Assembly (NCBI GenBank): GCA_963735595.1
Contig: CAVTLK010000002.1
Location: forward strand, 448,001-512,000
DNA: 64,000 nt
From: an uncultured delta proteobacterium
GTDB taxonomy: Bacteria > Desulfobacterota > Zymogenia > Zymogenales > Zymogenaceae
Direction of reading: 5' to 3'
Shown here: positions 1 to 14,853 of the stretch, one piece after another
Layout of the letters: each line of letters starts with the position of its first letter
Numbering within the stretch: position 1 is the first letter of the stretch
Notes under the pieces: model-generated
Database searches by the model: none
What the model saw: the letters and a program-made list of their open reading frames with translations, nothing else
What the model was told of the DNA's origin: nothing
Program-made: the position numbers and the translations under genes

Positions 1-253
1 ACGACCAGCCGGAGGCGATGGGGGAGGGATGCCGGATGAACTGTGCCCAGTTGGTCAGGATGAACAGGAGCTTTGCCCCGACCAGGGCCGACGGCAGCAT
101 CCAGAGGATGATATCGACACCCGTCCACGCCGAAAGGCCGTCGCGACGGGCCAGGACGAGGAAGAGGACCACGCCGGCAAGGTAACCCGCCGTTATGAAA
201 AAGCCGTACGACCAGACGATGTGGCCGTCGATGGTAAAGAGGATGGGATGCAT
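1..253 (-). CDS. lgt: Prolipoprotein diacylglyceryl transferase-like protein, N-terminal part (runs off the window)
   Basis: Manual translation from ATG 253: MHPILFTIDGHIVWSYGFFITAGYLAGVVLFLVLARRDGLSAWTGVDIILWMLPSALVGAKLLFILTNW. The MHPILF...YG...GA[RK]L pattern and hydrophobic helices match the Lgt N-terminus. Absent from the ORF track because there is no stop in the window. Confidence 0.72.
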   Translation of the reverse strand, partial: MHPILFTIDGHIVWSYGFFITAGYLAGVVLFLVLARRDGLSAWTGVDIILWMLPSALVGAKLLFILTNWAQFIRHPSPIASGWS

Positions 254-436
254 AACTAATAGCTGCTACCTGATATCGTACGGGATGACACTGGCAGGCA
301 AGAATCGCTATTGACTCGTGCAATTTCGAGGGTGGCACTGAGAAGCGAAGCTTGTCAGTGATCCGAACTATTCCCAACAGCGGGAACGAACCTTCCGGTT
401 GTACGAGGCACGCGATGGTACGGAGGATCGGGTGCA

Positions 437-2526
437 TTATGGCTTCTTGCCGGTTACCCGCGTTTTGCCCCCGGCGTGATTTGCACTGAGTGCCGACTTT
501 ACGGCCTTTGCGATCGATTCTACGTCGATACGGTCCATGCAGTGGTTGGGTCCCATGGGGCAGGGCGTTCCGTAGATGCCGCTCCTTGTTTCCGTCAGGC
601 ATCCGTCCGGGTTCTGGCAGATCCGGTGGCCGACGAGGGTTGTCTGGCCCGGCCAGCCGTAGGTGGCGGGGTCTGTCGCCCCCCAGAGGGTTACGGCGGG
701 CGTGCCGACCAGCCGGGCGATGTGGACAAAGAGGTTATCGGTCGTGACGATCAGGTCGAACCGGGCCGCCAGCCCGATTGCCTCCCTGACGGTGGTGACG
801 CCCAGGAGGCTGTAGGCCCCGCGGATATACCGGTCGCGCGCGGCGCCCGCCTGGGCGACGAAGATTCCCTCGGCGGAGAGGCGTTTGACCAGCTCTTCCC
901 ACTGGGCGATGACATGTCTTTGCGGGGCGAGAGCGACCAGGGGCAGATCAGGACGTTTTTATCGGAAAGGGGGATGCTGTTGATGAGCAGCTCGTCGATC
1001 GACCGGCTCAAACGGCACGAAGAGGCGTTCGGCGGCCGGCATCGGGACGCCGAGCATCTCGGCAAGAATCTTGAAGGGGCGGCCGTTCGGTCCGCCGAAG
1101 TCCGGGGTGATCCCAGTAGGCGGTCCCGACGACGGCCGATCCGGGCGGCGGGTTGCCGATCCGTTCGACGGCGGGGTGGCCCTTGAGGATCTCGCCGTAG
1201 GTGGTTCGGGTGACCAGAGAGAAACGCCGCCGCGGGTCCTGATCGACGGCGGCCTTCAGGACGCCCGAAAGGATGATCGTGTCACCGTAGCCGCCGAAGG
1301 GGCTGATCCAGAGGGGACGGTTCTTGGGCGGCGCCCTGAACGGGACGACCGTCGCTGGCCGGCGGGACGGGAGGCTCGGGGACGCTTCGGTCCGTGCGGT
1401 CCGGGGACGCCGCCGGGCCGTCCGGCTCGAAGCGGACGCCGGTGATCGGCTCGAAGTACTTCTCGATGAACCCCTTCTTGTAGGCGCACAGGGGCGATTT
1501 TCTCATCCAGTCGCCGGTCTCGGCGTAGCTGTCCAGCGGGCAGCCGCCGTGGCAGACAGTCCAGAGGCGGCACCCCTTGCACTCACCCTGTTCGAGGTGC
1601 AGCTGGCGGGCGCGATACATCTCCTTTTGGGGGTCTTTGAGGACGCGTGTCTATCGAATTTTCGTGGATGTGGCCGTAGTCCAGCAGGCCCCAGTCCGAC
1701 GAGCGGCCGCACTGAGAATACCGGCCGGCGGGTCCCACGGACATGTGGGTATCGGCGCACATCCCCGACTCGGCGCATTCCAGGCCGCCCTTTCTCTCGA
1801 TGATCGCCTCCACAAACGACATGAAGGGACGAATCCTCGGGAAGCGATCCCGGCGCTCCCACCAGACCGGAAAAATCGCCCCGAGGAACTCCACGAATTC
1901 TTCCGGGGTTATCGCAAGCTTGGCGACCTTGCGCTTGAAGGAGTAGATCGAGTTGAACTTGACGGAGCCGGTTTTGTTGAGGTTGGTCAGAAAGTAGAAG
2001 AGGTCAAGGGGGGCGTCCAGAGAGAGCTTCGTGACGACGTAGATCATCCCCCAATTGATGTCGTTTTCCTCCAGAAGGCCCAGCGCGTCCATGAAACGCC
2101 GGTTATAGGCCGCCGAGTCGATAGTGCTGCCCAGACCCCGGACGTCGGGGATCGGGTCGTAGCTCGTGCTGACGCCGTTGATGCCGAGCGTCCGAAAGAC
2201 CTCGATATATTCCGGCGACAGCAGGGTAATGTTGGTCTGGATATCGTGGGAGATGCGGTCCTTTCGTGCCGGGGCAGTGCCGTTGTTCGAATTCATGGGC
2301 CTTCAGGAAATAGTCGGGCCCCAGCAGCAGCGGCTCGCCGCCGTGCCAGATGATCTGGAACCGCTCGTCCGGGCGATCGGCGAGGTATTCATTGACCCGA
2401 ACAAAGAACCGCTCCAGGGTCTCCAGCGGCAGCCGTGACGCCCTTTTCGCGGTCTTTCCTGACCACGTCGCAGTAGGCGCAGTTGCCGTTGCACGCCTCG
2501 GTCGGTTTAAATATGACGGTGGTCAT
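437..2526 (-). CDS. Radical SAM/SPASM maturase (anSME-like) apparently fused to a C-terminal GT9 glycosyltransferase domain; several frameshifts
   Basis: ATG 2526 with SD AAGGAG. Motifs: MTTVIFKPTEACNGNCAYC (CxxxCxxC), IIWHGGEPLL, IQTN, SPASM CAESGMC..SQCGR..CKGCRLWTVCHGGCP. Then GT9 motifs PFGGYGDTIILSGVLKA and DLIVTTDNLFVHIARLVGTPAVTLWGATDP, and a Cys-rich end PCPMGPNHCM. Stop TAA at 437. Confidence 0.75.
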
Positions 2527-3390
2527 GTCGCTCCTTTCTCGGTTCATCGCGCCGTTTGTCGAGGTCATCCAGGAGCGCGATCATCTCGACGGAGAAGGCC
2601 GCGCATCCCGTCCTGTCCGTCCCGTTTCGATCGAATTTCCCCAGGCAGACCTTCCATCCCGGGCAGCGCGAGCAGGGGTGATATGCGAGAAACAGGCGCC
2701 GGCGCACGTCGATCCGCTCCCGGTACGTCTCGGAATCGATAACTGTCGTCCAGCCGCTCGATATCGTTCTCGATGAAGCTTTCGTCGAGAAGTTCCCGGC
2801 GCGAGAGGGCGATGCGGCCGTCCGGGTCCAGGTGGAGGAAGTCCTTGGGGTCGTCGAAGAAGACCGGGCCCCACTCGATCCATCCGTCTGACTGGTAACG
2901 CCCCGCAATGGTCGAAAAGGGCTCGATCGGGCCGTGGGGTACGGCTGTCGACCAGGGAATAAGTCATGAGGTCGGCCAAGCCTTCCCAATCGACGGGTCC
3001 CGCGATCCCCGAAGACCGCCGCACATCGGATGTTGACCGACGAAAGAATCCTGAGGGCGGTGAGATTCCCGGGATCGTCGGCCGAAAGGTAAATCATGGG
3101 GTTCAGATCCCGAACCGTTCGCAGCCGCCGGGACGAGGCCGCGGAACTGCGCCATCTTCGGGGCAAAGACGGCAAGCTTGATGCCCGGCCCAGGCGTCGT
3201 CGAAGGGGACTTCGTCCAGGGGGATGCGAGAATCCAGGATGACCATCGAAAGCCGGTTGGCCGATGACCTCACGCACTCGGCGGCCCTGACGACGTCTGA
3301 CGGCTCATCGACCCGTACCGCCAGGACACGCTCGGATAAGTCGGCGATCAGCGTCTCGCTAAACGGCAATACAAGGTTTGGAAAGCCCAC
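2507..3390 (-). CDS. Hypothetical rSAM-associated protein with a C-terminal SPASM-like Cys cluster; frameshifted
   Basis: Joined from ORFs 3103..3390, 2964..3155, 2581..3024 and 2507..3277. Ends HPCSRCPGWKVCLGKF...GCAAF. Overlaps both neighbouring rSAM genes. No CxxxCxxC seen. Confidence 0.6.
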
Positions 3391-4393
3391 GTTCTATCTC
3401 CTGGAGCCGAACCGGCGCCTCGCCGACAAAGCGGTTCATGACCTGGCAGGCCCCGCCGCCCGCACACCGGCCCTCTTCCCGATGGATACAACCGTCACAC
3501 TCTTCGTAAATCCCGGCGGTCTCGGAGCGGACGCGGTCGAAGAGCCCCTGGTAGAAGTCGTGTACTTCCTTCATCGAGTTGAACTCGAAGAGGGAGCCGC
3601 TTGTGAAATCCCGAGAGCGGAAAGCATGCATAGACGTTCAGATCGGGGGTTAGGTCGATGGCCGGCCCGCAGCCGAATTTGAATTTCGCCGACTGGCGCA
3701 TAAGCCAGCCGAGCTGTTCGTCGGTAAACCCGCAGAGCGGGAAACCGCAGTCCAGACCCCGGCTTGATATCGAACCGATCCAGCGCCGGCCGAAATGAAT
3801 AGAGGCGGTCGATAACCGTCCGCACGTCGTCGGGTTTAATGATAGACGCTCTCAACTCCCGGCATCGGCGAGGCCAGGCCCAGCCGGATATGCCGGTGCA
3901 TGCCGTATCGCGCAATCAGGTCAAAGAGGAACCCGATGTCAAAATCGGTTCGATAGATGTTGAAGCCCGGCGTGCACCACGGCCCCATGAGGGAAAGGAA
4001 CTTCGCGATGCGCGTGCCCTCCTGCTTGGGGGCCGGGGTCTGATCGGGATTATTGAGGTTTACGACGAAGCTCAGCCGCGCGGGCGGCACCGCCGACAGG
4101 TGATCGGCCAGCTCCCTGAGACGCGCATCGGCCATAATGCCGCTGGTAAACACCGTTACGTGGAACTTGCGCTCGATAAGGAAGAGCACCATATCGACGA
4201 ACTCCGGGTGGAGGGTCGGCTCGCCGCCGAGCAGCGAAAGGCGATCCTGATCGGACGCGGCCAGAAAATCGGCAAGGTAGATCAGGTTTTCCCAGTTGAC
4301 AATGTCGCCCGAGGGGGACCCCTCCATCTCCCGCTTGGCAAAGCAGTAGGGGCAGGAACGGACGCAGCGGGATGTCATCAGGAGGTTGGTCAC
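3359..4393 (-). CDS. Radical SAM protein with SPASM/twitch-like C-terminus; frameshifted
   Basis: TSRCVRSCPYCF, LLGGEPTLHP and VFTSG. Downstream frames give CGPAIDLTPDLNVYACFPL and ECDGCIHREEGRCAGGGAC. Confidence 0.8.
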
Positions 4394-4520: not shown

Positions 4521-4883
4521 TTAGTTGTGCCAAATTATATTGCCGTAATTTTCGGAGTAATCGTAATAGTTCTGGTAATCGGAGTAGTTGTAATAATCGG
4601 AGTAGTTGTAATAATCAGAATAATTATAGTAGTATGCTGAATATTCGGTGTACATGTTTGAATAGTTGTAGTACGAATAGTTGTAATAGGAGTTACTGTA
4701 GCCGTTCACATACCCGCCGGTACACTCGTCCTGCCCCTGGGTAACGACTCCGGCGACGCCAAGGGTGCCGACCAGGGCGATCCCCTTGGCCATGCGCTTC
4801 ATCGCCTCCCGCCGGGTAAGCGTTTCCTTGTTTGTGGTGTCGATCTCTTGAGTTTTCTTCTTTGTCTTCTTTTCGTCGTTCAT
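4521..4883 (-). CDS. Tyr-rich repetitive RiPP-like precursor peptide A1 with twin-arginine leader
   Basis: SD AAGGAG. Leader LTRREAMKRMAKGIALVGTLGVAGVVTQGQDECTGG, then a 63-aa core with 25 Tyr and (YYNYSD)x3. Lies directly upstream of the rSAM genes. Confidence 0.8.
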   Translation of the reverse strand: MNDEKKTKKKTQEIDTTNKETLTRREAMKRMAKGIALVGTLGVAGVVTQGQDECTGGYVNGYSNSYYNYSYYNYSNMYTEYSAYYYNYSDYYNYSDYYNYSDYQNYYDYSENYGNIIWHN

Positions 4884-5041
4884 CGTCTTCTCCTTGCAGA
4901 GCCGTCTTATCGTAAAGAGGAAGGCATGACAGGTCGAGGGTGGTGAATACTCAACGTGTCGCTCCGCCGGGACTTATATTACATGTAAGCTTCTTATCTT
5001 CCTGACTCCTGCAAGCCCGTCTTGCATACCGTTACTGTCAT

Positions 5042-5070
5042 AGTTTATTACCAGTCATGATGTGAGTCAA
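5042..5070 (-). promoter_or_regulatory. Putative sigma70 promoter for precursor A1 and the rSAM operon
   Basis: TTGACT-N17-TAAACT on the minus strand. Confidence 0.45.
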
Positions 5071-5123
5071 GCAAATTGGTAAGTATCTTTAGTATAATAG
5101 TCGGAATTAAGGCCTGTCCCAGC

Positions 5124-5156
5124 AAAAAATATAAAGGGGCCCGTTCAGGCCCCTTT
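5124..5156 (-). terminator. Intrinsic terminator after precursor A2
   Basis: AAAGGGGCC-TGAACG-GGCCCCTTT hairpin followed by ATATTTTTT on the minus strand. Confidence 0.75.
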
Positions 5157-5177
5157 GGCTTGTCTATGTAACCCCGG

Positions 5178-5540
5178 TTACCAGGGGTGATAGTTGAAGT
5201 ACCCGCCGCCATGATTGTAATAATTGTAGTAGTCGCTGTAGTTGTAGTAGTCGCTGTACGTGTTGTAGTAATTATAGTACCCGTTGCTATAATTATAGTA
5301 CGCGTTCGAATAATCATAGTAGCCGGCATTGGAGTAGTTGTAGTAGCCCGGAGGGACCAGATTCACGTACCCGCCGGAGCATTCGTCCTGCCCCTGGGTA
5401 ACGACCCCGGCGACGCCGAGCGTGCCGACCAGGGCGATCCCCTTGGCCATGCGCTTCATCGCCTCGCGCCGGGAGAGTCTTTCGTCTTTCCTGACCTGGG
5501 CGGCCCCCGTTTCGTCTTTTTTCTTCTTCTTATCTTCCAT
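5178..5540 (-). CDS. Tyr-rich repetitive RiPP-like precursor peptide A2 with twin-arginine leader
   Basis: Likely start ATG 5540 (GGAGAAGACAATG, same context as A1), giving 120 aa. Same leader as A1; 63-aa core with 24 Tyr in YYN/YSN/YSD units. Confidence 0.8.
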   Translation of the reverse strand: MEDKKKKKDETGAAQVRKDERLSRREAMKRMAKGIALVGTLGVAGVVTQGQDECSGGYVNLVPPGYYNYSNAGYYDYSNAYYNYSNGYYNYYNTYSDYYNYSDYYNYYNHGGGYFNYHPW

Positions 5541-5678
5541 TGTCTTCTCCATTGATTCGGTTACCTACGAAATGTAGAGACGGCAATGTGAGAACCAGGG
5601 ATGCCGAAGTCTTACCGGGCAAGAATAATCGTTGCTGCCGTTGCTGCTTATCGACTTTACATGCTATCTCACGATATT

Positions 5679-5708
5679 ATTTTAACTATAAGTGAACTAT
5701 TCTGTCAA
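5679..5708 (-). promoter_or_regulatory. Putative sigma70 promoter for precursor A2
   Basis: TTGACA-N18-TAAAAT on the minus strand. Confidence 0.5.
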
Positions 5709-5951: not shown

Positions 5952-6989
5952 ATGAAAAAGGGAGATAAATACGGCGCCCACCGGGTGATTGAGCCCAAGG
6001 GGGTGCTTCCCCAGGCGGCCGATAAAATCGATAACACCATGGAGATCTACGATAACGAGATCCTCGTTTCGGTCAAGACACTCAACGTTGATTCGGCCTC
6101 GTTCACGCAGATCGAAGAAGAGGCCGGTCACGATACGGGCAAGATCGGCCGGATCATCATGGACACCGTAACCCGCAGGGGCAAGCAGCACAACCCGGTC
6201 ACCGGGTCCGGGGGGATGTTCATGGGGACGATCGAACAGGTCGGCCCGGCGCTCAAAGGCACGGTTTCCATTAAGCCGGGGGATTTTATCGCGTCGCTGG
6301 TTTCCCTCTCGACGACACCGCTGGTTATCGAAAAGATCGTCGAGATCAGGCCGGACCGGGACCAGGTGGATATCATCGGCAAGGCGATCCTCTTTGAGAG
6401 CGGGATCTACGTCAAACTCCCCGAAGACATGCCGCAGTCGGTTTCGCTGGCGGTGCTTGATGTTGCCGGGGCCGCCGCCCAGACGGCGAAACTCGTCAAA
6501 CCGGGGGATACCGTATTCATCATCGGCGCCGGGGGTAAATCGGGGATGCTGTGCGCCTACGAGGCCCAGCGGCGGGCGGGCGTCACCGGCATGGTTATCG
6601 GCACCGGACACTCCGCCGAGAGCACCAGGCGGATCAGAGAACTCGGCTTTTGCGATCACGTTATCCAGGTGAACGCCACCAATCCACTGGAGGTGGAGCG
6701 CGAAGTAAGCGAACTAACCGGCGGACGGATGGCAGATGTCACCATCAATTGTGTCAATATCCCCAACACGGAGATGGGCTCCATCGTCGCCACGAAAAAC
6801 GACGGGCTTATCTATTTCTTCTCGATGGCGACGAGCTTTACCAAGGCCGCCCTGGGCGCGGAGGGTATCGGCTCGGACGCTACCATGATTATCGGCAACG
6901 GCTATACCAAGGGCCATGCCGAGATCTCTCTCAATATCCTGAGGGAATGCTCGGCGCTGAGAGAGATATTTATGAAGCTCTATGCGTGA
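5952..6989 (+). CDS. kdd: L-erythro-3,5-diaminohexanoate dehydrogenase
   Basis: MKKGDKYGAHRVIEPKGVLPQAA, LNVDSASFTQ, GKQHNPVTGSGGM, GAGGKSG; lies in kam gene context. Confidence 0.92.
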   Translation: MKKGDKYGAHRVIEPKGVLPQAADKIDNTMEIYDNEILVSVKTLNVDSASFTQIEEEAGHDTGKIGRIIMDTVTRRGKQHNPVTGSGGMFMGTIEQVGPALKGTVSIKPGDFIASLVSLSTTPLVIEKIVEIRPDRDQVDIIGKAILFESGIYVKLPEDMPQSVSLAVLDVAGAAAQTAKLVKPGDTVFIIGAGGKSGMLCAYEAQRRAGVTGMVIGTGHSAESTRRIRELGFCDHVIQVNATNPLEVEREVSELTGGRMADVTINCVNIPNTEMGSIVATKNDGLIYFFSMATSFTKAALGAEGIGSDATMIIGNGYTKGHAEISLNILRECSALREIFMKLYA

Positions 6990-8022
6990 GACGCTGCTCG
7001 ACCTGGTCGAGAAATCGGGGGCGCGGATAATCTCGGTCGTGGGTCTGGCAAAGAACACGGGCAAGACCACGACGCTTATCTACCTCGCCGGGCGCCTCGG
7101 CGCTGAGCCCGGGGTGCTGGCCCTGACCTCCACTGGGCGTGACGGCGAGGCAATCGACGAGATCACTCGTAGAGAAAAGCCGTCCGTCACCGTACAGGAG
7201 GGGACCCTGGCGACCGTCGGCCAGCGGTCACTGGACCAGGGGCCGGGCGTATCGGTGGTGCGCGATACGCCTTACGCAACCGCCACCGGCGGGATCGTGA
7301 TCGTTCGGGCCGAGAAAACCGCCCGGGTTGTCCTCGAAGGACCGGCGACGGCCACCGAGATGGGGCGGCTGGTGACCGACCTCATCGAGAAGGACGGCGC
7401 CCGATACGTTATCATAGACGGGTCGCTGGACCGGATCGCCGCCGCGGCCCCCGGCGTCTCTGACGGGGTGATCCTTGCGGTGGGGGCGATCCTGGGGCCC
7501 GATATGGAAACGGCGGTGCGAAAGACCCGGCACGCGGTGGACCTCTTTGTGACCGGGGAAGCGCCCGTGGCCGTACCCGGTGATATCGGCGTCTCCCGGC
7601 TCTGCGCGGTAAGCGCCGACGGGGCGGATTGGGCGATACGCGAGGGATCGGTAATCACCGACCTTTCCCCGGTCATGGGGATGCTGGAAAAGGGCGCCCG
7701 GTATCTCTATGTCTCTGGAGCGCTTACCGACGAGGTGCTGGAGGCGTTTACGGAGCGCGGCCTTTTCCCGGTCGTGATCGCGCAGGACGCAACACGGCTG
7801 TTTGCGTCGGGCCGGTCACTGGCCCGCTACACCGCGGGCGGCGGCGCCGTGAGGGTTAAACGGCGCATCAGGCTCATCGCGCTGACGGTCAATCCCCATA
7901 ACCCGGAGGGGATCGATTTTGACCCCGACGATTTCCTGGCGGCGATGAGAGCGGCGATACCGGACGTGCCGGTTTTTGATATTGTGCGGGAGGAAGCGCG
8001 TGGAATCCAAACTCGGCCTTGA
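6982..8022 (+). CDS. kamB: Lysine 5,6-aminomutase reactivase-type subunit
   Basis: P-loop-like SVVGLAKNTGKTTT, TSTGRDGE and IDGSLDR; located between kdd and kamD. Confidence 0.7.
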   Translation: MRETLLDLVEKSGARIISVVGLAKNTGKTTTLIYLAGRLGAEPGVLALTSTGRDGEAIDEITRREKPSVTVQEGTLATVGQRSLDQGPGVSVVRDTPYATATGGIVIVRAEKTARVVLEGPATATEMGRLVTDLIEKDGARYVIIDGSLDRIAAAAPGVSDGVILAVGAILGPDMETAVRKTRHAVDLFVTGEAPVAVPGDIGVSRLCAVSADGADWAIREGSVITDLSPVMGMLEKGARYLYVSGALTDEVLEAFTERGLFPVVIAQDATRLFASGRSLARYTAGGGAVRVKRRIRLIALTVNPHNPEGIDFDPDDFLAAMRAAIPDVPVFDIVREEARGIQTRP

Positions 8023-9538
8023 CAGGGCGATTATCGACGAATGCCGGGGCTTTGCGGAAAAGATCTCCGACGACCTCATGGGGTTTATCCGGTCTCACAC
8101 GACCGACAGCGTGGAGCGGGCGGTAACACGGCTCCTGGGGCTGGACGGGACCGACCGGATCGGCACCCCGTATCCGAACGTGCTGATGGACGCGGTCAAG
8201 CAGTCGCGCGGGCTCGGTGAGGGAGCGGCGGCGGCATCGGCCGACCTCATCGCGCACACAGGCGGGGCACTTATTGACGCCGTCAAAATGATCGCAGAAA
8301 AAAAGCTCAGACTTGCGGACGTTCCGGTGCTCGACAGAAACAGGCGGATTACGATTATTAGGCCCCTGGCCCAGGCGGGGCTTGCGAGGATCAAGGACCG
8401 TGTCGATGAGCGAAACCGCCTGAGGGCGGCCTATCCGATGAGCGGGCCCCCGCTCCTCTACGTGATTGTAGCCACCGGCAACATCCACGAGGACGTGACC
8501 CAGGCGGTCAGCGCCGTGAAGAACGGGGCCGACTGCATCGCCGTTATACGCTCAACGGCCCAGAGCCTTCTGGATTATGTCCCGTACGGCGCGACCACCG
8601 AGGGCTTCGGCGGCACCTACGCCACCCAGGAAAACTTCAGGATCATGCGCAGCGCACTGGACGAAGCGATGGTGCGGGAGGGCCGCTATATTAACCTCGT
8701 CAACTACGCCTCGGGCCTCTGCATGCCGGAGATCGCGGCTGCCGCGGCCTTCGAGCGGCTGGATATGCTGCTCAACGACTCGATGTACGGTATTATCTTT
8801 CGCAACATCAATACCTACCGCACGTTCGTCGACCAGTATTTTTCCCGGATGATCAATGCCAAGGCCGATATCATCATCAATACCGGCGAGGACAACTACC
8901 TGACCACGGCCGACGCCGTGGAGAAGGCCCATACGGTGCTGGCAAGCGATTTCCTCAACGAGTCGTTCGCGTATAAATCGGGGCTCCCGCCGCGCCTCAT
9001 GGGGCTGGGCCACGCCTTCGAGATTGACCCCTCGCTCGAGGGGGGCTTCCTGATGGAGCTCGCCCAGGCGCAGATGATCAGGGAGATCTTCCCCGAGGCC
9101 CCCATCAAGTATATGCCCCCCACCAAACACGTGACCGGGAACGTATTCCAGACGCACCTCGTGGACATGATGTTTAACGTCTGCTCCGTGATGACCGGCC
9201 AATCCATCCACCTGCTGGGCATGCTGACCGAGGCTATTCATACCCCGTTTGTCGGCGACCGGTACCTGTCCCTATCGGGGGCGCGCTACGCCAAGAACAA
9301 TATGCGCGGGATCGGCGACGAAATCACGTTTGCGCCGGACGGGTTCATCCGGAGGCGGGCGCGGGAGGTCCTCGGCAAGGCCCACGTAATGCTGGCCGAG
9401 ATCGTCGATATCGGGCTGGTGGAGGCGCTGGCCCGGGGGATGTTTGCTGATATCCACCGGGACCCCAAGGGGGGCAAGGGGATCGACGGCGTGGCCGAAA
9501 AGGGCGAGAACTATTACAACCCGTTTGCCGAGGCATGA
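8000..9538 (+). CDS. kamD: Lysine 5,6-aminomutase alpha subunit
   Basis: GTG 8000 after GGGAGG. ESKLGLD, YVIVATGNIHED, YGATTEGFGGTYATQENF, NYASGLCMPEIA. Confidence 0.92.
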   Translation: MESKLGLDRAIIDECRGFAEKISDDLMGFIRSHTTDSVERAVTRLLGLDGTDRIGTPYPNVLMDAVKQSRGLGEGAAAASADLIAHTGGALIDAVKMIAEKKLRLADVPVLDRNRRITIIRPLAQAGLARIKDRVDERNRLRAAYPMSGPPLLYVIVATGNIHEDVTQAVSAVKNGADCIAVIRSTAQSLLDYVPYGATTEGFGGTYATQENFRIMRSALDEAMVREGRYINLVNYASGLCMPEIAAAAAFERLDMLLNDSMYGIIFRNINTYRTFVDQYFSRMINAKADIIINTGEDNYLTTADAVEKAHTVLASDFLNESFAYKSGLPPRLMGLGHAFEIDPSLEGGFLMELAQAQMIREIFPEAPIKYMPPTKHVTGNVFQTHLVDMMFNVCSVMTGQSIHLLGMLTEAIHTPFVGDRYLSLSGARYAKNNMRGIGDEITFAPDGFIRRRAREVLGKAHVMLAEIVDIGLVEALARGMFADIHRDPKGGKGIDGVAEKGENYYNPFAEA

Positions 9539-9539
9539 A

Positions 9540-10298
9540 ATGACGGCGCAGGTAAAGAAAGGAATCGTAAAACCGTACGGCGACGCCATGGGGGACGGCG
9601 CCGTGCAGGTCTCGTTCACCCTTCCGGGCGTCTCCGGTGAGATAGCCGAGGAGGCCGCCCGCCGCCTGGCCGGCGAGATGGGTATAGACGACCCGTTCGT
9701 GAGTAACTGCGACGACATCGGTTCCGGGATGACCTTTATCGTCCTCTACGGGAGGCTCCGGCACTCGGTCGACATCACCCGGATCAAGGGGTTTGACCGG
9801 GCCGCCGAAAAGATACCGAACATGAAGGTCATCGACCATATGATCGAAGAGCGGCTGGGCCGCGCGATCACGGCGGTCGGGGCGTGCATCGAGAGCGACG
9901 CCCATACCGTCGGGATCGACGCTATCATGAACATGAAGGGCTATGCCGGGGATTACGGGCTGGAGCGGTATAAGAACTTCCGGGCGATCAACATGGGCGC
10001 CCAGGTAAGCGCCGAGGAGGTCGTGCGAGAGGCGGTCCGGGAAAAGGCCGACGCCATCCTCGTCTCCCAGGTGGTGACCCAGAAGGAGGTCCACGTCAGG
10101 AATCTCACCCGACTGGTGGACCTGCTGGAGGCCGAGCACGTGCGCGATCGCGTTATCCTCATCGTCGGGGGGCCGCGGATCACCCGGGAGCTTGCAAAGG
10201 AGCTCGGCTTTGACGGCGGATTCGGCCGGGGTACGCTGCCGTCGCACGTGGCCTGGTTTATCCTGAACAGGCTCATCGAAAAGGAGGGCAGGGCATGA
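9540..10298 (+). CDS. kamE: Lysine 5,6-aminomutase beta (cobalamin-binding) subunit
   Basis: VKPYGDAMGDGAVQVSFTLP; B12 motif DAHTVGIDAIMNMKGYAG. Confidence 0.92.
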   Translation: MTAQVKKGIVKPYGDAMGDGAVQVSFTLPGVSGEIAEEAARRLAGEMGIDDPFVSNCDDIGSGMTFIVLYGRLRHSVDITRIKGFDRAAEKIPNMKVIDHMIEERLGRAITAVGACIESDAHTVGIDAIMNMKGYAGDYGLERYKNFRAINMGAQVSAEEVVREAVREKADAILVSQVVTQKEVHVRNLTRLVDLLEAEHVRDRVILIVGGPRITRELAKELGFDGGFGRGTLPSHVAWFILNRLIEKEGRA

Positions 10299-11419
10299 AG
10301 ACAACCCCCAGCGCATTGGAGCGTTTTTACGTCCAGTGGGAGTTTGCGGTCGGAACCAATATCAGCGCCTCGTGCGGCGCCGAGACCACGACGGCGGAAC
10401 TCCTTGCGATGGCGGGGAAAGACGAGAGGGAGAAATACCTCTCGCTGGGGCTCGGGTACCGGGAGAACAAGGGCGACGCTCAGCTCAGGGATTTAATCGC
10501 CGCCGAGTACAAGAACCTTTCCGCCGATGATATACAGCTCGCCTGCGGGGGCTCGGAGGCCATCTTCCTGTTGATGCATACCGAGCTTAATCCGGGAGAC
10601 CGGATCATAGCCGAGGCGCCGCTCTACCAGACGCTCTTTCAGATAGCCGAGGATCACGACGTTGAAGTGGAGTGGCTCCCCCTCCTTGAATCGGAGGATT
10701 ACGTGCCGGACCCGGGACGCCTCGCCGACCTGCTCAAGAAAAAGCCGGCGCAGATGGTCGTCATCAATCATCCCCACAGCCCCACCGGATCGATCCTGAC
10801 CGAAGGGCTGCTTGCCGAGATCGTGGGGATCTGCGACCGATACGGTGCGCTCCTGGTCTCCGACGAGGTCTATTGGGGGGCCTTTTATGACGAGGCGGAC
10901 GTTGTCCCCCATGCTGCCGATCTCGCCGAAAACGTCATGACCATCGGCGACATGACCAAGCCCTACGGGCTGGGGGGGCTCAGGATCGGGTGGCTCGCCT
11001 CCCGGAGGAACGATATCCTGGAGGAGGCCTCGGCCCTCAAGGACTACACGACGATGTGTGCGGCGGGCCCGTCCGAGCACCTGGCGATACTGGCCCTCAC
11101 GCACAAAGAAGCGATCCTTGAACGCAACGTCGGGATTGCCGCCGAGAACATCGCGCTGTTCGACGATATCCTAAAGGACTCCGGTGGAAGGCTCTCCTGG
11201 GTGAGGCCGAGGGGCGGATACACGGGGTTTGTCTCGCTCAACGTGCCGGGGATGACAACGCGGGATCTCGCGCTGGGCCTCATCAAGGAAAAGGATGTCC
11301 TCATCCTGCCGGGTGACGTCTTCGGGGACGGCGGCAAGTTCCGGATCGGGGTGGGGACAAAGCGGGACGAGTTCGCCCGCGGAACCGTGGCCCTGGCGGA
11401 TTTCGTGTCGCGCCTGTAA
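10295..11419 (+). CDS. PLP-dependent aminotransferase class I/II
   Basis: INHPHSPTG, SDEVY, DMTKPYGLGGLRIGW. Confidence 0.85.
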   Translation: MKTTPSALERFYVQWEFAVGTNISASCGAETTTAELLAMAGKDEREKYLSLGLGYRENKGDAQLRDLIAAEYKNLSADDIQLACGGSEAIFLLMHTELNPGDRIIAEAPLYQTLFQIAEDHDVEVEWLPLLESEDYVPDPGRLADLLKKKPAQMVVINHPHSPTGSILTEGLLAEIVGICDRYGALLVSDEVYWGAFYDEADVVPHAADLAENVMTIGDMTKPYGLGGLRIGWLASRRNDILEEASALKDYTTMCAAGPSEHLAILALTHKEAILERNVGIAAENIALFDDILKDSGGRLSWVRPRGGYTGFVSLNVPGMTTRDLALGLIKEKDVLILPGDVFGDGGKFRIGVGTKRDEFARGTVALADFVSRL

Positions 11420-11507
11420 GGGCCGGCGCCCGAGGTGGCGCGACGCACTTTTTGACAGCACTTGCGCCGGCCGGCGGCGATGGTGTATGATGCATAGTCG
11501 GCAATAA

Positions 11508-11930
11508 ATGGATTTTCATATGACGGTTACGTATACGGGTATTGAATCGACGATCCGCCTCAGGATGAGCAGCGCCGACGCCCATTACGGCGGCGGGCTG
11601 GTTGACGGGGCCGGGATACTGGCGCTCTTCGGCGACGTGGCCACGGAGCTGCTTATCCGGCTCGACGGCGACGAGGGGCTCTTCCTGCGCTACGACGAGG
11701 TCGAGTTCATCGCCCCGGTATACGAGGGGGACTACATCGAGGCGACAGGCACGATAACGAAGGTCGGCGGCACCTCGCGGACGATTGAATTTTGCGCCCG
11801 CAAGGTGGTGGCCGCACGGCGGGACGTCGGCGCTTCGGCGGCCGATTTCCTGCCCGAGCCGGTGATCGTTACCCGGGCCAAGGGCGTCTGCGTTACTCCG
11901 AAAGGGCTTCAGCGGACGATAAAGACATAA
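11508..11930 (+). CDS. kal: 3-aminobutyryl-CoA ammonia-lyase (hotdog fold)
   Basis: [17 protein letters not shown]...[19 protein letters not shown]...[14 protein letters not shown]. Confidence 0.9.
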
Positions 11931-11945
11931 CGGGAGGTTTTACCG

Positions 11946-13327
11946 ATGGCCTACATGAACTATGAGCTGGTTTCAAAAAAGACCGAACGGATCACGACCA
12001 AGTTCCGTAAGATAGCGACCGATATCCCCGTGCCGGAGTCGATACCGATACTCAAGGAGCTGAGAAAATACGAGCCGATCTCCATGAGCGGCCAGCCTTT
12101 GGTCGTGTGGGATAACGCTGAGAACTTCACGGTGAGGGACCGCTGGGGCAATAAGTGGATCGACTTTTCATCCGGTGTGCTCGTGGCCAACTGCGGGCAC
12201 CTCCCGCCGGAGATGAAGCGGGCGCTGGTGGACCAGATCAACTCGGGCATGATCCACTCCTACTGCTTCCCCAACGAGCCGCGGGCACAGCTCGTCAAGA
12301 AGATGATCGAGATCGCCCCGAAAGGGATGAACAAGGTCTTTCTGCTGACCACCGGCGCCGAAGCCACGGAAAACGCCATCAAGCTGGCCAAGACGTGGGG
12401 AATGCGCACCGCGGGGCCGAACAAGAACGTGATCGTAACCTTTACCGGGTCTTTTCACGGCCGCACCCTCGGGTCGCAGCTGGCAGGCGGCATCCCGGCC
12501 CTGAAAGAGTGGATCGGCAGGCTCGACCCCACGTTTGTCAACGTCCCGTTCCCGGACGGGTATCGATTCGAGGATACGAGTTTTGACGTCTTCGAGAAGA
12601 GCCTCAAGGATCAGGGAATCAGCAAGGATCGGGTCTGCGGCGTGATGATGGAATCCTACCAGGGCGGCATCGCCGGGTTTTACCCCGAGCAGTACGTCAA
12701 AAAGCTGCGGAAATGGTGCGAAGGCGCCGGTGCGCTGTTGATCGACGACGAGGTGCAGGCAGGCTTCGGGAGATCGGGAAAGCTCTTTTCCATCGAACAC
12801 TACGGCGTCGTTCCCGATATCATCTGCTGCGGCAAGGGGATGAGCGGGGGGCTGCCGATATCGGCGGTCATCGGCAACTCGAAATTCATGGATATCTACG
12901 GGCCGGGGGAGATGACCTCAACCCACAGCGGCAACCCGCTGACCTGCCGGGCGGCGCTCACGAGCATCGAGCTGCTCCAGAAGAACAAGCTTGTCGAAAA
13001 CGCCGCAAAGATGGGCAAAATCCTTCATGACGAGCTCAATAAGCTTAAAGACGAGCATCCGATATCATCGGCCGGGTCCAGGGCAAGGGACTGCTGGCGG
13101 CGATGCTCTTTGTCAAGAAAGGGACCAAGGAGCCGGACCACCCGCTGGCTTTCGCCGTGGTGGAAAGGTGTATCCAGACGGGCGTTATGCTCTACGCGCC
13201 CCTGGGCCCGGGCGGCGGCACCGTAAAGGTCAACCCGCCGTTGACTATCACGCCGGAGCCGCTGATGGAGGGGATCTCGGTGATCGCCGAGGCGATCCGG
13301 GCGGCGCGAAAGGAATTGAAGAGGTAA
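11946..13327 (+). CDS. PLP-dependent aminotransferase class III; frameshift near 13070
   Basis: TGAEATENAIK, SFHGRT, DDEVQAGFGRSG, GKGMSGGLP, STHSGNP. C-terminus lies in ORF 13103..13327 (KVNPPLTI). Confidence 0.85.
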
Positions 13328-13570
13328 CACCGGGATGGGGAATATGCCCACGGGCGGAACCCGTATGCCATGAACGTCTGGTTTATCAAGATGCTGAGTC
13401 TTTTGCGGATCGGGACCGGCGGATACAAGTCCGGGGCCTATAAACCGGATTGATGCCGCTCGCGCGCGGATAGGCACTTCGTACGCGGACGAGGGCGCCG
13501 AGGACCGCGGGGGCGTTTTCTCGGCGGGCCACGGCTACCGGCCTTTTACCTATGATGAACGGACAAACCC

Positions 13571-14853
13571 ATGAGAAACTATAAAGACATAGAATTATTC
13601 AAGGACGCCACCGAAAAGGAGTGGGGCGACTGGCGCTGGCACGTCAAGAACCGCATCACCACCGTCGAGGCCCTCAAGAAGGTCATCAACCTGACTGCGG
13701 AGGAGGAGGAGGGGATCAGGACGACGCTGGCGCGCTTTCGCATGGCCATTTCCCCCTACTACGCCTCCCTGATGGATCCCGACGACGGCTGCTGCCCCAT
13801 TCGTAAGCAGGCCAGTGCCCACGATCAGCGAGACATGTAAGGCGCCGGAGGACCTCGAAGACCCGCTGAGCGAGGACGAGGACTCCCCGGTGGCGGGCCT
13901 CACGCACCGCTACCCCGACCGGGTCCTCTTCCAGGTCACCGACCAGTGCACCATGTACTGCCGGCACTGCACGCGGCGGCGCATGGTCGGCGTCAACGAC
14001 AGGATGCGCAGTCAAAGACCGAGCTTTCGGCCGATATCGACTACATCCGGGAGACGCCGGAGGTCAGGGACGTGCTCCTCTCGGGCGGCGATCCGCTCAC
14101 GCTGGTCGACGACCAGATCGAGTGGATCATCGCCGAGCTCCGGAAGATCCCCCACGTGGAGATCATCCGCATCGGCTCCCGGACGCCGGTGGTGCTGCCC
14201 CAGCGTATCACCCCCGAGCTGGTCGATATGCTCACCAAGTACCACCCGATCTGGTTCAACACCCACTTCAACCATCCCGAACGAGATCACGGAGGAATCG
14301 GCCCGGGCCTGCGACCTGTCTGACCCGCGGGGGCATCCCCGTCGGCAACCAGTCGGTGCTGCTGCGCGGCGTCAACGACTGCATCCACGTCATGAAGGCG
14401 CTCGTCCACGGTCTCATGAAGATCCGGGTGCGGCCCTACTACCTGTACCAGTGCGACCTCTCGGTGGGCATCGAGCACTTCCGCACCTCGGTGGGCAAGG
14501 GCATCGAGATCATTGAGCGGCTGCGCGGCCACACGTCCGGCCTGGCGATCCCCACCTTCGTGGTGGACGCCCCGGGCGGCGGCGGCAAGATCCCGGTCAT
14601 GCCCCAGTACATGATATCCCGCAGCGACCACAAGATCATCTTCCGCAACTACGAGGGATTCATATCTTCGTACACGGAACCGGTGATAGACCACGAGGAA
14701 TGCCCGGTCTGCAAGCAGATGCGAGCGAAAGGGGGTCAAGAGCATCGGCATCGAAAAGCTCTTCACCGGCGAGGCATCATCGCTGCGGCCCACGGACTCC
14801 GTGCGCGGACAAGCGCAAGAAGAGCCAGTTCCACGCATAAAGAGATTCCGTAA
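13571..14853 (+). CDS. kamA: Lysine 2,3-aminomutase (radical SAM); multiple frameshifts
   Basis: [61 protein letters not shown] found across four ORF fragments. Confidence 0.9.

Follow-up and report, generated by a model that had tools for sequence, protein, structure and literature searches.

Two intact open reading frames on the minus strand of the window, as we call the whole 64,000-nucleotide stretch of a Zymogenaceae contig (CAVTLK010000002.1) analysed here, encode Tyr-rich precursors, A1 and A2, and we are highly confident that these are substrates of the adjacent cassette of two radical SAM enzymes (rSAM1 and rSAM2), a pseudo-rSAM, a GT9 glycosyltransferase and a paralogue of Lgt. By its grammar of aromatic-x-Asn/Asp triplets the system resembles the triceptides, whilst by the tests run it appears to fall outside every named family of enzymes that form three-residue cyclophanes (3-CyFEs); there is a credible chance that it represents a new class. 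The triplet register, the gene order and fusions, the conservation of the leader, the Lgt paralogy and the selection acting on it are observed directly. With a Tat-like signal that holds a Cys, a GT9 fusion, a pseudo-rSAM and a dedicated Lgt, the product looks like an exported envelope protein rather than a cleaved small peptide. We found no description of this precursor and cassette family in the literature searched, a search with most subscription chemistry journals outside its scope; the triceptide network of Sugiyama (JACS, 2022) may list it.

Table 1. Coordinates of precursor and cassette features within the window.
Feature	Position	Strand	Description
Precursor A2	5178..5552	minus	124 aa (alternative start 5540); Tat-like signal, Cys58, 66-aa core, 15 triplets
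A2 core	5181..5378	minus	core sequence
Precursor A1	4521..4883	minus	120 aa; Tat-like signal, Cys54, 66-aa core, 17 triplets
A1 leader	4722..4883	minus	charged n-region, twin Arg (T-R-R-E-A-M-K), ~14-residue h-region, polar linker to Q-D-E-C
Nine contiguous A1 triplets	4551..4631	minus	residues 85-111
Candidate sigma-70-like promoter upstream of A2	5679..5708	minus	11/12 consensus positions; consensus match only
Terminator-like hairpin 3' of A2	5133..5156	minus	pattern match only
rSAM1	3359..4393	minus	radical SAM, CxxxCxxC, C-terminal Cys clusters, unnamed family; frameshifted here, intact in L001 (343 aa)
Pseudo-rSAM	2507..3390	minus	radical-SAM/SPASM fold, no SAM-cluster motif, four C-terminal Cys kept; frameshifted here
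rSAM2-GT9	437..2526	minus	anSME/DynA-like SPASM fused to GT9 glycosyltransferase; frameshifted here, one 692-aa ORF in L003
Stretch between GT9 and lgt	254..436		~180 bp, absent from relatives; its first bases repeat the lgt start; occurs once in the genome
Cassette Lgt paralogue, 5' part	1..253	minus	runs past the window to ~447530 on the source contig

The triplet register and its third position

A recount returned the same 17 (A1) and 15 (A2) non-overlapping [YW]-x-[NDE] triplets as the original prediction, and reproduced the nine that stand back to back in A1. When each 66-aa core was shuffled 20,000 times with its composition preserved, the mean was 6.3 triplets for A1 (sd 1.6, maximum 13) and 5.1 for A2 (maximum 11); the run of nine in A1 exceeds the shuffle maximum of six, and the longest run in A2, five, lies inside its own maximum of six. 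Tyr or Trp occupies position -2 of Asn, Asp or Glu in 17 of 18 cases in A1 and in all 15 in A2. Since synonymous codon positions vary between the repeat units, the triplets are not a plain DNA slippage repeat. The cores are ~38% Tyr and 19% Asn, with lag-3 Tyr-Tyr pairs enriched and N-x-S/T sequons frequent (5, 3, 8); they hold no Cys, and their charge is neutral to acidic. Sigma-70-like consensus matches of the kind found upstream of A2 number six, against 2.1 in shuffles.

A third precursor stands on contig C5 of the source genome (553545-553988, minus; 147 aa), with the same leader and 22 triplets where shuffling gives 8.9. This orphan has an internal duplication and no adjoining cassette, and syntenic orphans are found in the relatives L002 and L005. 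A six-frame scan of the genome yielded 10 stretches with at least five triplets per 45 aa, and only A1, A2 and the C5 orphan reach 11-13, the next best having six. In a profile search the precursors matched no Pfam or NCBIfam family above cut-off; the ESM Atlas returned unnamed clusters only, along with leads, themselves weak, that pointed to Cys-x-x-x targets (0.84) and to SPASM proteins, and the leader is weakly similar to TIGR04117 (E 0.024).

Homologous precursors keep the three-residue register, a point on which the original prediction had staked its reading. We compared 47 de-duplicated cores of the precursors' own family, found partly by similarity to A1, with 45 from other lineages, chosen by a filter needing at least four triplets; one frameshifted core (P0037) and two duplicates (L112 and L113) were left out. 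In these counts, where related cores are not independent, aromatic-x-[N/D/S] exceeds shuffles at p<0.01 in 40/47 own-family and 40/45 other cores. Four of the seven own-family failures come from one genus with Tyr-x-Arg (55 Arg, 26 Asn), whose cores lie above all 5,000 shuffles when Arg is admitted as an acceptor, an addition made post hoc. Two residues after Tyr, the own-family cores hold (observed/shuffled) Asn 492/213, Asp 182/79, Arg 57/32, Ser 4/107 and Gly 1/66, and those of other lineages Ser 516/279, Asn 279/152, Asp 60/36 and Gly 16/49; Y-x-Y falls below the shuffled count in both sets (314/436 and 301/509). The preference for Tyr at -2 holds with distinct 5-mers and is therefore not repeat expansion alone.

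Position 3 thus varies by lineage among Asn/Asp, Ser and Arg, all of them documented triceptide acceptors, and avoids Gly. Indeed, crosslinks are described in which the C-beta belongs to Asn, Asp, Ser, Arg or Ala (PMC11002830), and Gly is without a C-beta (PMC11002830, PMC11499958). This choice among known acceptors, together with the avoidance of Gly, would be the strongest argument for cyclophanes. Between own-family triplets the spacer is of zero residues in 404 cases, one in 233 and more in 83, so that ~44% of triplet-to-triplet steps carry spacer residues; such a mix seems to fit unit-by-unit local recognition better than a fixed coil, and the pattern, as we read it, gives no support to the continuous rod that had also been envisaged. 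The X2 residue is most often Tyr (326). In some paralogous precursors the core is followed by a charged tail of His/Glu/Arg/Asp (L001:7222-7548, L003:5734-6189 and 7033-7392).

Triceptides are defined by an aromatic-to-C-beta link on an aromatic-X2-X3 motif (PMC11499958), and such motifs are present in the cores studied here. The aromatic-to-(i+2) crosslinks that the original prediction ascribed to triceptide enzymes, Asp and Asn included, are documented for C-beta (PMC11002830): YxdB joins Tyr-C3 to the C-beta of Asp, and YhhB joins Tyr to Arg. Aromatic-X2-X3 units, Tyr donors, Asn/Asp/Ser/Arg acceptors and a SPASM enzyme of the same broad group as rSAM2 are thus common to our system and to the 3-CyFEs (XncB/XyeB, OscB/GrrM, MscB/FxsB, YxdB, YhhB, HaaB, HtkB, ChlB and MicB). 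The differences are of scale and of setting. The triceptides compared here (the HtkA family; MicA, with three rings, PMC12912966) carry one to three units per core, whereas the cores in our system hold a median of 16 and up to 50, and reach 150-200 residues; their leader is cleaved, with proteolytic release right before the first ring (PMC12912966), whereas ours is an export-type signal; and our cassette has two rSAMs, a pseudo-rSAM, GT9 and Lgt.

The cassette and its radical SAM enzymes

The genes 3' of the precursors are rSAM1, a middle gene (the pseudo-rSAM), the rSAM2-GT9 fusion and lgt, in that order. All five cassette genes (rSAM1, pseudo-rSAM, rSAM2, GT9 and lgt) are frameshifted in the window. 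Most of these breaks are single extra bases, and contigs of related organisms, obtained in up to four runs, lack them. Splits over frames also affect other genes of the source genome, namely 10 of the 17 non-cassette ORFs taken from relatives, a set that contains duplicates, so that the frameshifts are probably assembly errors. The stretch between GT9 and lgt could be either a true insertion or an assembly artefact. Analyses of the enzymes used the intact copies of the relatives L001 and L003. Beyond the precursors, positions 5952-14853 hold what we take to be a probable lysine-fermentation cluster (dehydrogenase-like and aminomutase-like subunits, aminotransferases and a KamA-like rSAM), partly frameshifted.

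rSAM1 has 1,219 homologues at E <=0.001 and occurs in 20/401 genomes of the phylum, including seven of the nine other genomes of the family. Most long loci among 80 metagenome loci carry rSAM1, the middle gene, rSAM2 and GT9 in order, and a filter search, in which many contigs were short, recovered a Tyr-rich twin-Arg ORF from 45 of the 80; human-gut metagenomes are among the carriers. Relatives hold up to five precursor-type ORFs per locus (L003), plus further orphans. One match, L007, was at chance level and was dropped.

Several neighbourhoods depart from this arrangement. In L055 (6525-9131) and L081 (4811-5353), T9SS-sorted proteins and a large FG-GAP/SpvB-domain protein come after cassettes that have no GT9; additional radical SAM genes, mostly B12-binding, lie near cassettes in L020, L038, L039, L084 and L124, and GT87 genes occur in L039 and L050. 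Remoter rSAM1 homologues (L119, L078, L074, L084 and L122-L124) come without the pseudo-rSAM and rSAM2; a CsgG-family gene adjoins L119 and L078, and L084:4109-4525 encodes a Cys-rich peptide with a Tyr-Thr tail.

The catalytic motifs of both rSAMs are conserved, and intact in L001 and L003: CxxxCxxC in rSAM1, and in rSAM2 a SAM motif with eight SPASM Cys kept in at least 90% of 60 loci. The best profiles of rSAM2 are DynA, anSME (129 bits) and DarE, and it reaches none of the NCBIfam cut-offs (score/cut-off in bits: DynA 138/450, DarE 119/650, AmcB 89/425, YhhB 87/445, GrrM 81/310, FxsB 64/370, XyeB 47/450). For rSAM1, AmcB, YhhB, GrrM, FxsB and XyeB are all absent among the matches listed. 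Orthology to the HXS enzymes is missed as well, HxsB scoring 59/370 with rSAM2 and 19/370 with rSAM1, and HxsC 17/268.

In quick trees, with NCBI-named members as references and without XyeB, YxdB, ChlB, DynA and AmcB, rSAM2 forms a clade of its own, outside the FxsB/YhhB and GrrM clades sampled. Its nesting with YhhB is rejected (p-AU 1.7e-48), deeper sister relations to FxsB/YhhB, GrrM, anSME or DarE are neither rejected nor supported (p-AU 0.12-0.50), the link to DynA/DarE-type maturases is weak (SH-aLRT 83), and HxsB sits on a separate long branch. Its sister group (SH-aLRT 99) consists of plasmid rSAMs from triple-rSAM clusters. Two of these, on pQBR57 (L136:4992-8867) and on a Photobacterium plasmid (L135:4887-8616), hold three radical SAM genes, the first being sister to rSAM2, together with a gene for a small protein that bears a signal peptide and Cys-His-x-Ala or His-x-Asn repeats, and adjoin type IV pilus/T2SS genes. 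Plasmid and phage collections gave no close homologue of rSAM2, all being <28% identical among the matches listed.

rSAM2 belongs to a broad anSME/DynA/DarE/3-CyFE-like SPASM group; ChlB is among its three PDB sequence matches (E 3.9e-11). The original prediction of poly-cyclophane, triceptide-like substrates hence keeps its footing in the register, in the documented acceptors and in this broad group, but the enzymes lie below all 3-CyFE cut-offs in a comparison that did not include YxdB, and reach no named family. The phylogeny against three-residue cyclophane enzymes, which it had put forward as a check, does not nest rSAM2 among the FxsB/YhhB and GrrM enzymes sampled, though a sister relation to either is not rejected. 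The residues D214 of HtkB and H204 of HaaB tune the third residue (PMC11499958); at the column corresponding to HaaB H204, where YhhB has Asp, N/D-type and R-type rSAM2 alike have Ile/Val, with no enzyme-substrate covariation.

By sequence, rSAM1 is a distant, unnamed SPASM-like family; its model matches SuiB, anSME, SkfB and ChlB at ~15% identity with no specific neighbour, and is uninformative on chemistry. The pseudo-rSAM reaches no Pfam or NCBIfam family above cut-off, and its predicted fold (pLDDT 93) aligns with anSME (Z 13.8, rmsd 3.7, 264 aligned) and ChlB (Z 13.2, rmsd 3.9, 262 aligned). Because it has no SAM motif, keeps its Cys and, in 7 of 36 long relatives (>=35 bits), follows rSAM2-like domains within one fused protein, it is likely a non-catalytic partner. 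GT9 has a weak WaaF match only (E 0.0011).

An export-type leader and a dedicated Lgt paralogue

The leader runs from a charged n-region and a twin Arg through a hydrophobic stretch to a polar linker that ends in Cys. Twin Arg and Cys are invariant in 35/35 aligned homologue leaders; a few own-family precursors are without the Cys (L111, L185 and L188). The Tat consensus includes a Phe that the motif here lacks, and the window precursors do not reach TIGR01409. TatC is encoded in the source genome, in L063 and L070 tatC is the immediate neighbour of the precursor, and the leaders of distant homologues end in lipobox-like or AxA sites. Directly before the leader Cys there is no canonical lipobox, the sequence being Q-D-E-C, and the T-Q-G that precedes the Gln would also be compatible with signal peptidase I. 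No protease or ABC exporter recurs among 113 neighbouring ORFs from 44 loci. Export by way of the N-terminal signal is, in our judgement, probable. At L015:4909-13800, a cassette has a lolC/E-type gene upstream and lnt and lgt downstream, and its precursor has a canonical lipobox.

The gene for Lgt lies directly after GT9 (45-364 nt) in 7/40 loci, all seven with Q-[D/G]-E-C leaders, counted over the 48 loci with rSAM1 and GT9 less eight with <1 kb after GT9. Among the remaining 33, Lgt occurs only in L015, where it is of the E. coli type and 2.3 kb off. As all seven Lgt-linked loci come from one family, they amount to one gain event. In L001 (a single assembly) one ORF of 949 aa encodes rSAM2, GT9 and Lgt together; in L003, rSAM2-GT9 (692 aa) and Lgt are separate ORFs. 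The source genome has two other Lgt genes besides the cassette copy, and six of seven family genomes searched likewise hold three, the seventh (G125) holding two, with its cassette unassembled. The third copies form a clade (SH-aLRT 99, quick tree) derived from the lspA-linked type, and dN/dS in the cassette Lgt is ~0.15-0.19. This is a third, diverged paralogue under purifying selection, newly seen in Zymogenaceae.

The cassette paralogue scores 145 bits against Pfam LGT and keeps Y26, R143, G154, R239 and R246; E243 is changed, and N146C is as in the lspA-linked paralogue. The position of His103 is held by Q, A, V, L or T; His103 is naturally replaced by Y, W or F, and H103Q is non-functional in E. 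coli (PMC13251419), so that the activity of the cassette Lgt is uncertain. The Pfam domain and the kept residues are common to bacterial lipoprotein systems, but the putative target, Q-D-E-C, is not a lipobox. A rough genome scan found ~60 canonical lipobox starts against three of the Q-D-E-C type, and these three are the precursors.

The same Lgt clade is met in a different setting in genome G157 (L164:3-353 and 591-1025; contig C277), where two Cys-x-x-x repeat ORFs stand directly before the gene. One of them has a full Tat signal ending in G-A-S-C, and this Lgt has Lys at R143 and R239. We found no Tyr cassette in G157, and TIGR04115 is absent, at E 1e-20, from both G157 and the source genome. 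Given this neighbourhood, the paralogue appears to be tied to exported repeat substrates and not to one chemistry.

A maturation scheme, its alternatives and its implications

We propose that rSAM2, the most likely candidate, with the pseudo-rSAM as its predicted partner, would link the ring of Tyr(i) to the C-beta of Asn/Asp(i+2) in the cytoplasm, and that rSAM1 would introduce a second modification of another kind. The fused GT9 would then add a sugar, with the free X2 Tyr/Ser hydroxyls as likely sites; the bulk of the stapled chain would account for Tat export, and the invariant Cys would be lipid-anchored by the cassette's own Lgt paralogue. Every chemical step of this maturation is one that we infer. 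Taken together, stapling, glycosylation, Tat export and lipid anchoring make a reading that we hold to be evenly poised. Of its parts, we lean somewhat towards an aromatic-C-beta crosslink from i to i+2 being a main reaction, whilst Lgt-dependent lipidation of the predicted precursors could fall either way and at least ten rings per chain are doubtful. The most ambitious version, a poly-cyclophane glycolipoprotein with at least ten stapled Tyr-x-Asn/Asp units, glycosylated by GT9, exported by Tat and modified by its own Lgt on a non-lipobox Cys, is less probable still.

Other systems in which rSAM enzymes act on repeat proteins provide useful points of comparison. HxsA is an exported His-x-Ser repeat protein with two rSAMs and one +8 Da (+C, -4H) site (PMC13128918), and HXS (HxsA/B/C/D) likewise pairs a signal-bearing aromatic-x-Ser repeat protein with two rSAMs and a helper; there, cytoplasmic maturation precedes export, the order that we propose here. 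Our system differs in having Tyr rather than His, in lacking a peptidoglycan-binding domain, in its neutral to acidic cores, in enzymes that are not orthologous, and in GT9 and Lgt; His-x-Ser repeats are absent from the window cores, which are of Tyr-x-Asn/Asp with Ser avoided at +2, and the HxsA modification is of +8 Da, not the -2 Da expected of a crosslink. Cys-x-x-x repeat targets (TIGR04114/04117) and CrpA/CrpC (PMC13692751) also make a repeat protein the rSAM substrate, as proposed here, with thioether chemistry on Cys, a residue that our cores lack. TvgB (PMC9062424) and CrpC (PMC13692751) are further cases of repeated rSAM modification. The dynobactin and darobactin maturases, DynA and DarE, are with anSME the best-scoring profiles of rSAM2, but there is no short single core here.

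The main rival reading, which comes chiefly from HXS and which we regard as rather unlikely, is that substrate, export and anchoring are as proposed whilst the radical chemistry on the triplets is not cyclophane formation. It could be carbon insertion or bridging of the HXS kind, for which both rSAMs would be needed, or else Tyr-Tyr or Tyr-O ether links, dynobactin-like C-N links, or a modification of only one or a few units. The single +8 Da site that two rSAMs produce in HxsA is one reason to entertain this; two catalytic rSAMs and a pseudo-enzyme exceed what a 3-CyFE needs, DynA is the top profile of rSAM2, Tyr is the commonest X2 residue, and TvgB shows that repeat precursors can hide unexpected chemistry (PMC9062424). 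Yet rSAM1 and rSAM2 score far under the HxsB and HxsC cut-offs, with HxsB on its distant branch, Y-x-Y is depleted, and position 3 changes only among known acceptors that bear a C-beta. A quite different possibility is that the triplets are purely structural, a beta-solenoid or amyloid-like ladder of Tyr and Asn in an exported, glycosylated fibre, with rSAMs that act elsewhere or only epimerise. The Tyr/Asn composition, the lag-3 enrichment, the sequons and the GT fused to rSAM2 would suit such a fibre, but the free mixture of spacers is unlike a fixed coil, the -2 rule survives the switch of acceptor to Arg or Ser, and no separate conserved substrate gene was found, all of which leave this account very improbable.

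The remaining two alternatives concern the fate of the product and the state of the locus. Were this a classical triceptide RiPP, the N-terminus would be a recognition leader, and host proteases would cut the cyclised core into short diffusible units; the triplet grammar is indeed that of the triceptide definition, the leader is strongly conserved among paralogues and its twin-Arg motif is non-canonical. Set against these are the absence of a conserved peptidase or ABC exporter from the neighbouring ORFs, homologue leaders that have h-regions and finish in a lipobox or AxA site, the placement of tatC, lnt/lgt or a dedicated Lgt next to the cassette, and the length of the cores; we consider it quite unlikely, and a protein retained in the envelope more likely than a released antibiotic. 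As for the window copy being a decaying pseudogene cluster, its five frameshifted genes and the extra 180-bp stretch before lgt would be expected of one, but related contigs lack the extra bases, non-cassette ORFs are split in the same genome and L001 and L003 hold intact cassettes, so that decay is the most improbable explanation that we weighed.

If the glycolipoprotein reading is true, a single assembly line combines RiPP chemistry with protein glycosylation and with lipoprotein biogenesis, and in L001 three of those activities are predicted on one 949-aa chain. Cyclophane stapling would then build densely crosslinked envelope proteins, beyond short antibiotics and with many more rings than in the characterised cases considered here, and an Lgt paralogue that acts on Q-D-E-C would broaden the lipobox rule. 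A processive enzyme for back-to-back Tyr-x-N/D/S/R units would serve as a peptide-stapling tool. That exported repeat proteins of such a kind can give strong phenotypes is illustrated by HXS, which blocks phage DNA entry (PMC13128918), and the large family with its intact copies makes these ideas testable. The glycolipoprotein reading, if true, would also establish a class of envelope polymers that is widespread among anaerobes, including gut bacteria.
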